Shown here: one piece after another, positions 38,171 through 39,496 of the stretch
How positions within the stretch are numbered: position 1 is the first letter of the stretch
Layout: each line of letters starts with the position of its first letter
Assembly: GCF_048403405.1 (NCBI RefSeq)
Contig: NZ_CP183129.1
From: Escherichia coli
Lineage (GTDB): Bacteria; Pseudomonadota; Gammaproteobacteria; Enterobacterales; Enterobacteriaceae
DNA length: 64,000 nucleotides
Direction: 5' to 3' (one strand)
The notes under the pieces: model-generated
The model's database searches: none
What the model saw: only the letters and a program-made list of their open reading frames with translations
Told to the model about the DNA's origin: nothing
Program-made: the position numbers and the translations under genes

Positions 38171-38236
38171 AATGAGATGGTCACTCCCTCCTTCCCGGTA
38201 CTATGCTGAGGACAGGCTTTCATTCGGAGAACTATC

Positions 38237-39241
38237 ATGGAAAACATTGCGCTCATTGGTATCGATCTGGGTAAAAACTCTTTCCATATTCATTGCCAGG
38301 ATCGTCGCGGGAAGGCTGTTTACCGTAAAAAATTTACCCGGCCAAAGTTGATCGAATTTTTGGCGACATGCCCCGCTACAACCATCGCAATGGAAGCCTG
38401 TGGCGGTTCTCACTTTATGGCACGCAAGTTGGAAGAGTTGGGGCATTCCCCAAAGCTGATATCACCACAATTTGTCCGCCCGTTCGTTAAAAGCAATAAA
38501 AACGACTTTGTCGACGCCGAAGCTATTTGTGAAGCTGCATCGCGTCCGTCTATGCGTTTTGTGCAGCCCAGAACGGAATCTCAGCAGGCAATGCGGGCTC
38601 TGCATCGTGTCCGTGAATCCCTGGTTCAGGATAAGGTAAAAACAACCAATCAAATGCATGCTTTTCTGCTGGAATTTGGCATTAGCGTTCCCCGAGGAGC
38701 TGCCGTTATTAGCCGACTGAGTACCATTCTTGAGGATAATAGTTTGCCTCTTTACCTCAGCCAGTTATTGCTGAAATTACAACAGCATTATCACTATCTT
38801 GTTGAGCAGATTAAAGATTTGGAATCCCAGTTGAAACGAAAGTTGGACGAAGATGAGGTTGGACAGCGCTTGCTGAGCATTCCCTGCGTCGGAACACTGA
38901 CAGCGAGTACTATTTCAACTGAGATTGGCGACGGGAAGCAGTACGCCAGCAGCCGTGACTTTGCGGCGGCAACAGGGCTTGTACCTCGGCAGTACAGCAC
39001 GGGAGGTAGGACGACATTGCTGGGAATTAGTAAGCGAGGTAATAAAAAGATCCGAACTTTGTTGGTTCAATGTGCCAGGGTATTCATACAAAAACTGGAA
39101 CACCAGTCTGGCAAATTGGCCGATTGGGTCAGGGATTTACTGTGCCGGAAAAGCAACTTTGTCGTCACTTGTGCTCTGGCAAACAAGCTGGCCAGAATAG
39201 CCTGGGCCCTAACGGCACGACAGCAAACTTATGTAGCATAA
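38237..39241 (+). CDS. IS110-family DEDD transposase/recombinase, 334 aa
   Basis: N-terminal RuvC-like motifs (IGIDLGK, MEACG, DFVDAEA) and C-terminal domain with conserved Ser (VPRQYSTGG). Confidence 0.85.
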   Translation: MENIALIGIDLGKNSFHIHCQDRRGKAVYRKKFTRPKLIEFLATCPATTIAMEACGGSHFMARKLEELGHSPKLISPQFVRPFVKSNKNDFVDAEAICEAASRPSMRFVQPRTESQQAMRALHRVRESLVQDKVKTTNQMHAFLLEFGISVPRGAAVISRLSTILEDNSLPLYLSQLLLKLQQHYHYLVEQIKDLESQLKRKLDEDEVGQRLLSIPCVGTLTASTISTEIGDGKQYASSRDFAAATGLVPRQYSTGGRTTLLGISKRGNKKIRTLLVQCARVFIQKLEHQSGKLADWVRDLLCRKSNFVVTCALANKLARIAWALTARQQTYVA

Positions 39242-39481
39242 CGGCAGAAATACACCGGTTTAAAGAATTACTGATCTGGTTTTGCGAATACTGATATTGA
39301 TGATACTAACGGCCCACCGGCCTGTTGAGGAACCTGTAAAACGGAAAGGCTCATTGAAGCCGTATATTTTCTGGAGGTTCATCAGGCGCGGAACTCATCA
39401 AGGCGCGGGAATAAAATCCCATTCAGACGCCGGATAGATTCAAGCAAGCCAACTTGTCGTCAAAATCGGTGTTGCAAAAAC
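39242..39481 (+). ncRNA. Candidate bridge/seek guide RNA in the 3' non-coding region of the IS110-family element
   Basis: Contains aaaacggaaa (39338-39347), identical to the yfeD insertion-site flank, followed 2 nt later by ctcatt, the reverse complement of the element left terminus. Confidence 0.45.
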
Positions 39482-39496
39482 GGGAGTGACCATAGA

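Follow-up and report, generated by a model that had tools for sequence, protein, structure and literature searches.

Within the 64,000-nucleotide stretch of Escherichia coli DNA analysed here (the window), the chromosomal gene yfeD is present as two fragments separated by 1326 bp, which hold a single insertion sequence (IS) copy (Table 1). Translation of the two fragments bore out an original prediction, made from the letters of the window, that yfeD is divided into 36 and 94 codons. The same prediction had placed between them a gene for a 334-residue DEDD recombinase, flanked by 12-bp subterminal inverted repeats, and both were recovered by open reading frame (ORF) and repeat searches. The repeats are perfect and leave a left extension of 6 nt (7 nt including T 38170) and a right extension of 3 nt. 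Their 12-mer occurs at these two places and no others in the 64-kb window, where 0.14 occurrences are expected by chance. Non-coding DNA is distributed unevenly around the transposase gene, tnp, with 66 bp upstream versus 255 bp downstream. The length of 1326 bp holds as the net insertion. By contrast, IS4321 and IS5075 have a published length of 1327 bp that counts in one T, giving a 7-nt left extension TAATGAG (PMC5001619). If this literature definition is used, the element is 38170..39496 and yfeD is short of one T.

Table 1. Coordinates of features at the interrupted yfeD locus (positions in the window)
Feature	Coordinates	Strand	Basis or remark
IS4321 copy	38171..39496	plus	1326 bp net insertion; published 1327-bp definition starts at T 38170
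Left subterminal inverted repeat ATGGTCACTCCC	38177..38188	plus	6 bp from element end
tnp, 334-aa DEDD transposase	38237..39241	plus	ORF, profile and domain matches
3' non-coding region, 255 bp	39242..39496	plus	after tnp stop; highly conserved among IS4321/IS5075 copies
Predicted seekRNA core	39317..39391	plus	MFE folds, RNAalifold consensus of 5 relatives
Predicted top-strand guide (T segment) AAAACGGAAA	39338..39347	plus	complement of TTTCCGTTTT, 38170 plus 39497-39505
Predicted bottom-strand guide (B segment) AUAUUUUC	39364..39371	plus	same sense as canonical target ATATTTTC
TTGCAA, -35 box of predicted circle-junction-only promoter	39472..39477	plus	sequence; PMC5001619
Right subterminal inverted repeat GGGAGTGACCAT	39482..39493	plus	3 bp from element end
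Left half of target mimic, AAATTT (canonical ATATTT)	38165..38170	plus	logo
Right half of target mimic, TTCCGTTTTC	39497..39506	plus	identical to canonical transposon-end target
yfeD 5' fragment, codons 1-36	39497..39604 (39604..39497)	minus	translation MKRLRNKMTTEELAECLGVAKQTVNRWIREKGWKTE
yfeD 3' fragment, codons 37-130 plus stop (94 codons plus stop)	37886..38170	minus	translation; identical to intact yfeD, strain 4621
IS609-like IS200/IS605 element	36205..37846		between gltX and yfeD
Degraded tnpA of IS609-like element	~36205-36630	minus	
Intact 402-aa TnpB/InsQ RNA-guided nuclease gene of IS609-like element	36638..37846	plus	
Four tRNAs (Lys and three Val)	34019..34413	minus	homology with annotated genomes
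Two tRNA-Ala	40186..40373	plus	

Joining the flanks of the element restores a 130-residue ORF that, as predicted, is colinear with the product of the adjacent gene, YfeC (36% identity). That reading also required an intact allele equal to the joined flanks, and one exists in E. coli strain 4621: positions 35500..41500 of the window without 38171..39496 are identical to NZ_CP103479.1 1599705-1604379 at 4675/4675 positions, and the empty-site region of that strain reads gltX-IS609-yfeD-yfeC-tRNA-pdeA. With a 140-nt joined-flank query (coverage at least 80%), the uninterrupted site was detected in 5254 of 5426 complete E. coli genomes, with 100% identity in NZ_CP023820. The predicted lack of target duplication was likewise observed, T5 of the empty site having become TTT^IS^TT (carets mark the junctions). 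The adjacent yfeC, upstream of yfeD in the same operon, is intact. A polar effect on essential genes is not expected, since gltX is convergent to yfeD and is separated from it by the IS609-like element. The latter element is confined to some E. coli lineages and is missing from most genomes with an IS in yfeD (yfeD::IS). The tRNA clusters on either side of the locus are the normal K-12-like surroundings of gltX and yfeCD.

The transposase scores 341 bits against NCBIfam profile NF033542 ('IS110 family RNA-guided transposase', cut-off 140), and Pfam matches to DEDD_Tnp_IS110 (PF01548, residues 7-146, E 1.8e-19) and Transposase_20 (PF02371, residues 210-286, E 1.1e-19) give it the N-terminal DEDD/RuvC-like and C-terminal Transposase_20 domains of the IS110 family. 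Its nearest solved structures, the IS621 and ISCro4 transposases, are distant (E ~1e-12). Elements of the IS1111 group are recognized by a long downstream non-coding region, a GL-P----S/TG motif and a transposase of 330-350 residues (PMC11187229). The element in the window has the downstream non-coding region, subterminal repeats of ~12 bp, a transposase of fitting length and the motif GLVPRQYSTG at residues 247-256. The site and orientation specificity of the group is also evident, the same position and orientation being found in ~170 genomes with 0 or 1 T gained. Assignment to an IS1111-type, IS110-family element, as originally proposed from the subterminal repeats and the long 3' non-coding region, was thus upheld.

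Similarity to IS4321 and IS5075, to which the original prediction had pointed, could be refined to a single element. IS4321 was defined on the IncP plasmid R751, which carries IS4321L and IS4321R (Partridge & Hall 2003, cited in PMC11187229 and PMC5001619). The window element shares 99.7% DNA identity with R751 IS4321R (3 mismatches and 1 gap over 1326 bp) and 332/334 transposase residues; corresponding values for R751 IS4321L are 97.1% and 331/334. By blastn comparison, the left repeat in R751 is one C shorter than that of the window copy. Isoforms of one IS are customarily grouped at ~95% DNA identity or more with near-identical transposases. The transposase equals WP_000427623.1 of copies named IS4321 by PGAP, and many 100%-identical copies carry the PGAP label 'IS110-like element IS4321 family transposase'. 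Public copies of 100% identity number in the hundreds, with plasmids predominating. Of the 5426 complete E. coli genomes, 1481 contain the IS, at 1908 plasmid and 405 chromosomal places. In its ends, subterminal repeats and 3' non-coding region the R751 element agrees with the window copy; it differs in its setting, lying in a Tn21/Tn3-family terminal repeat rather than a chromosomal gene, and in its gain (1327 versus 1326 bp).

That the element is instead IS5075, or a new member of the IS1111 family, has very little probability. IS5075 agrees with IS4321 in length, ends, guide segments and target, occupies yfeD in other strains, and is the name PGAP gives to some yfeD insertions. Nonetheless, DNA identity of the window copy to the IS5075-type copy of NMBU-W13E19 is 93.5%, versus 99.7% and 97.1% to the R751 copies of IS4321, and its protein is the one PGAP names IS4321. 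On these comparisons, the window element is classed as an isoform of IS4321, in the IS1111 group of the IS110 family, and not as a new element.

The sequence preference of these elements was summarized in a target logo from the flanks of ~30 independent copies in species-representative genomes and E. coli chromosomes, which supplied 23 distinct left and 14 distinct right flanks. A scan of the whole collection with the left-end 16-mer returned 86 loci, of which only ~25 are real copies and most are chance matches in unrelated phyla. The logo reads ATATTT^TTCCGTTTT(C), with informative positions -6 to -1 (ATATTT) and +1 to +10 (TTCCGTTTTC). Most copies lie within terminal inverted repeats of Tn21/Tn3-family transposons, as ...GGATATTT^IS^TTCCGTTTTC(T/C)..., and a 13-bp target consensus for IS4321/IS5075 in the core of Tn21-family terminal repeats has been published (PMC8269217). 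The yfeD site, AAATTT^TTCCGTTTTC, agrees with the logo at 5/6 left and 10/10 right positions, placing it in the IS4321/IS5075 target class. Other E. coli genes are also interrupted by IS4321: napA (periplasmic nitrate reductase) at ATATTT^TACCGTTTT in strain ECONIH4, and fliK (flagellar hook-length control) at ACTTTT^TTCCGTTTT in strain G4/9. The napA insertion recurs among the strains listed (ECONIH4, CX07, CX15 and CX21). A precedent for repeated insertion at one position through target mimicry is ureC::IS5075 of Klebsiella pneumoniae (PMC8269217). Insertions of IS5075/IS4321 in ureC occur in 14.1% of K. pneumoniae genomes (PMC8269217), versus ~3.1% of complete E. coli genomes here for yfeD; the cases differ in gene and species, and ureC loss gives a urease-negative phenotype. 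IS4321 very probably landed in yfeD because the site mimics the Tn21-type transposon-end target, a fit to the predicted guide segments of the element that arose by chance.

In Pseudomonas poae (NZ_JYLI01000004.1, ~4549..4615), a 67-bp miniature consisting only of IS4321-like left and right ends (AATGAGATGGTCACTCCC...GGGAGTGACCATAGA) is embedded in REP-like sequence and resembles a MITE derived from a member of the IS1111 family. Copies in a Tolumonas MAG and in Klebsiella michiganensis have nearly the same non-transposon left flank, GAAAAGGTGGAGTT(T/G)TCAGACATAATA(C/T)TT. In the Tolumonas copy the right flank is of Tn21 type, a combination that points to either recombination involving two IS copies or chimerism in the assembly.

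Of the 5426 complete E. coli genomes, 170 share the left junction found in the window; counting right junctions gives ~171. Exact-junction queries of 54 nt were non-discriminating, as transposon-end copies share the 10-nt right flank and variants with an added T align with a gap. The 170 interrupted and 5254 intact sites together account for nearly all 5426 genomes, so that among those compared an interruption of yfeD always involves this kind of IS, in the same position and orientation. Among the occupied sites, the transposase is of IS4321 or IS5075 type, flank position -9 is A or G, the neighbouring IS609 may be present or absent, and three junction variants exist. As these differences in IS type, flank allele, neighbour and junction do not fit one event, yfeD is, judged from the genomes compared, a recurrent insertion hotspot for IS4321/IS5075. 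With ~170 of 405 chromosomal copies, it appears to be their main chromosomal landing site in E. coli. One copy at this site, in E. coli VTB97074v (NZ_CP178675.1, locus L091, 2671..3877), is 1207 bp long, internally deleted and frameshifted with intact ends and flush junctions, and represents a decaying copy at the same hotspot. A plasmid fragment matching the 5' half of yfeD (98.6% identity) was noted at 33942..34010 of NZ_CP070008.1 (198 kb, E. coli FDAARGOS_1288), annotated as a YfeC-like regulator; the chromosome of this strain carries yfeD::IS5075. In the literature searched, we found no mention of yfeD together with IS4321, IS5075 or IS110.

On a rival reading, a single ancient insertion was inherited by descent, the window belongs to that clade and no hotspot is involved. 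In its favour, the 200-nt junctions are identical in a large share of the 170 genomes (100% in 22 of the 40 listed), a result that fits clonal expansion of some lineages. However, strains 4621 and MS 69-1 have an intact yfeD between flanks 100.0% identical to those of the window, and the combination of IS609 with the yfeD insertion exists in only 2 other genomes of the 5426 (98.6% and 96.6% identical). Occupied sites moreover hold both IS4321 and IS5075, which are 6.5% apart, and display two flank alleles along with the three junction variants. A single ancient event is accordingly most improbable. The insertion in the window itself looks recent, to judge from the 100.0% identity of its flanks to those of the empty-site strains.

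The position of the element between codons 36 and 37 and its length, 1326 bp and divisible by three, are the features that might speak for a functional insertion, whether as a domesticated element, a yfeD-IS fusion protein or a switch. The IS is antisense to yfeD, however, and the yfeD frame meets a stop 18 codons into it, leaving a 54-residue ORF (39440..39604). The same element occupies unrelated sites (transposon ends, napA and fliK), ten yfeD insertions carry an extra T and are not multiples of three, and yfeD is intact in 5254 genomes. We consider a functional role next to impossible. The codon-boundary position and multiple-of-three length given in the original prediction are correct as coordinates; with the frame stopping 18 codons inside the IS, they are a coincidence and have no functional meaning. 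The yfeD product is predicted to be truncated to 36 native residues followed by 18 IS-encoded residues. We know of no phenotype for loss of yfeD. Misplacement of the IS into yfeD by a repeat-collapsing assembler can be dismissed with near certainty, for although IS copies commonly cause misassembly and identical copies exist on plasmids, both junctions recur base for base in ~170 independent complete genomes from many laboratories.

With IS5075 identity, a single ancient event, an in-frame functional fusion and an assembly artefact all rejected, the best explanation of the locus, held with high confidence, is recent insertion of an intact IS4321 into a target mimic in yfeD, with inactivation of the gene. 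The original reading is correct and has been sharpened: what landed in this target mimic is IS4321 itself, and the same insertion recurs in ~3% of complete E. coli genomes.

Elements of the IS1111 family are excised in circular form, with a promoter formed at the circle junction, and the donor copy must be flanked by target sequence (PMC11187229). Circles of IS4321 and IS5075 are documented, with the junction AGA-T-AATGAG in ~98% of reads, and the junction sequence AGATAATGAG has been described together with its promoter boxes (PMC5001619). Joining the ends of the window copy with a T linker would yield TTGCAA-17 nt-GATAAT, in which GATAAT is the -10 box. A promoter scan of the integrated copy revealed no strong or convincing promoter and none comparable to the junction promoter. 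Extending published work on other IS1111 members, IS4321 would be excised as a circle, and the circle junction would create a promoter driving tnp and the 3' non-coding region. The 3' non-coding transcript would be processed to a seekRNA of ~75 nt, whose pairing would set the transposase at one site and in one orientation. No designed function is attributed to the insertion in yfeD.

The seekRNA core predicted in the 3' non-coding region folds into a long stem (39317-39335 with 39375-39391), an internal loop and a GGCU/AGCC hairpin cap. In the RNAalifold consensus of 5 relatives the stems are conserved and the loops variable; z-scores of the fold were weak (-0.85 and -2.33). The predicted T and B segments sit on opposite sides of the internal loop. 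The complement of the T segment, TTTCCGTTTT, spans the insertion point, and a match of 10 nt arose in 17 of 3000 shuffled versions of the non-coding region. The B segment AUAUUUUC matches yfeD at only 6/8 positions. Rfam revealed no RNA family in the element, either in an E-value scan of 37800-39900 or in a gathering scan of the whole window. From this analysis, the 3' non-coding region of IS4321 is predicted to encode a seekRNA in which both loop segments match yfeD. In the literature searched, experimental mapping of an IS4321 seekRNA was not found.

The seekRNA architecture of the IS1111 family has been published (PMC11187229). ISEc11, ISKpn4, ISPst6 and ISPa11, whose seekRNAs are experimentally defined (PMC11187229), have a downstream non-coding region and subterminal repeats as in IS4321. 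They also resemble the IS4321 prediction in having the T guide 5' of the B guide and overlapping target matches, and differ from it in their targets and guide sequences. Two relatives of the window element, one from Serratia (L076, 80% identical) and one from Pseudomonas (L071, 64%), retain the stems and differ in the loop segments. In each the loops match its own flanks: for the Serratia element, the guide complement ATTCCGATA corresponds to the target ATTTCGATA, with ATAATT on the left, and for the Pseudomonas element the matches are GTTTCAT and TCCGGTTT. This guide-target covariation comprises two relatives with one insertion each. Right ends of distant relatives (Caballeronia, Burkholderia, Collimonas and others) were not located, leaving the Pseudomonas element as the only usable one among them. 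The guides may have been reprogrammed naturally, as reported for ISEc11 and ISXne4, a proposal that remains a prediction. The bridge-RNA recombinases of IS621 and ISCro4 (IS110 group; PDB 8wt6 and 9t56) resemble the IS4321 transposase as homologous DEDD and Tnp-domain recombinases with RNA-guided target choice. Unlike IS4321, these elements have the guide RNA upstream of tnp, lack subterminal repeats and use a 2-nt core, and the mechanism of IS1111 elements may differ from theirs (PMC11187229, discussion).

Targets differ in the number of bases gained. At the transposon end (L066 type) T4 becomes TTT^IS^TT, in napA T3 becomes TTT^IS^T(A), and in fliK T5 becomes TTTT^IS^TT, each a net gain of 1327 bp. 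Flush-joined 140-nt queries for napA and fliK align to 139-nt spans in intact genomes with 99.3% identity. At yfeD, in contrast, the window and ~160 of 170 genomes have converted T5 to TTT^IS^TT, a gain of 1326 bp, the ~160 being the 170 minus the 10 found by queries with an added T. Eight genomes have T5 converted to TTT^IS^TTT and two to TTTT^IS^TT, both gains of 1327 bp. These counts are of genomes, not events; flush junctions occur on at least 5 distinct backgrounds. Were a 1327-bp circle exchanged conservatively, yfeD should yield only the two minority products (10 genomes); simple conservative integration of such a circle does not account for a gain of 1326 bp. In 20 of 23 left flanks, A is found at -4 and -6. 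The left junction might be set by the bottom-strand guide on A.ATTT and the right junction by the top-strand guide on TTCCGTTTT; the positions read by the two guides would then overlap by one T in T4 targets and abut in yfeD, which would give the majority yfeD product. By this tentative and rather doubtful account, yfeD would represent a natural change of spacing in the IS4321 target (T5 versus T4 at the transposon end), with the junctions placed independently by the guides and integration of the circle's linker T being optional. If true, it would set insertion by IS1111-type elements apart from the simple conservative exchange of IS621.

Published work already covers the element, the targets it prefers and its RNA-guided mechanism, and ~170 RefSeq genomes have this insertion annotated, so in these respects the finding is known. 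Apparently unreported until now are the frequency of the yfeD hotspot in E. coli and the one-base anomaly at its junctions. The one-base difference at yfeD offers a ready-made test of how two guide segments fix two junctions. With yfeD::IS present in ~3% of complete E. coli genomes, and in ~22% of those with a full IS copy, the interrupted gene could mark exposure to plasmids with Tn21-type transposons, in parallel to ureC in Klebsiella.
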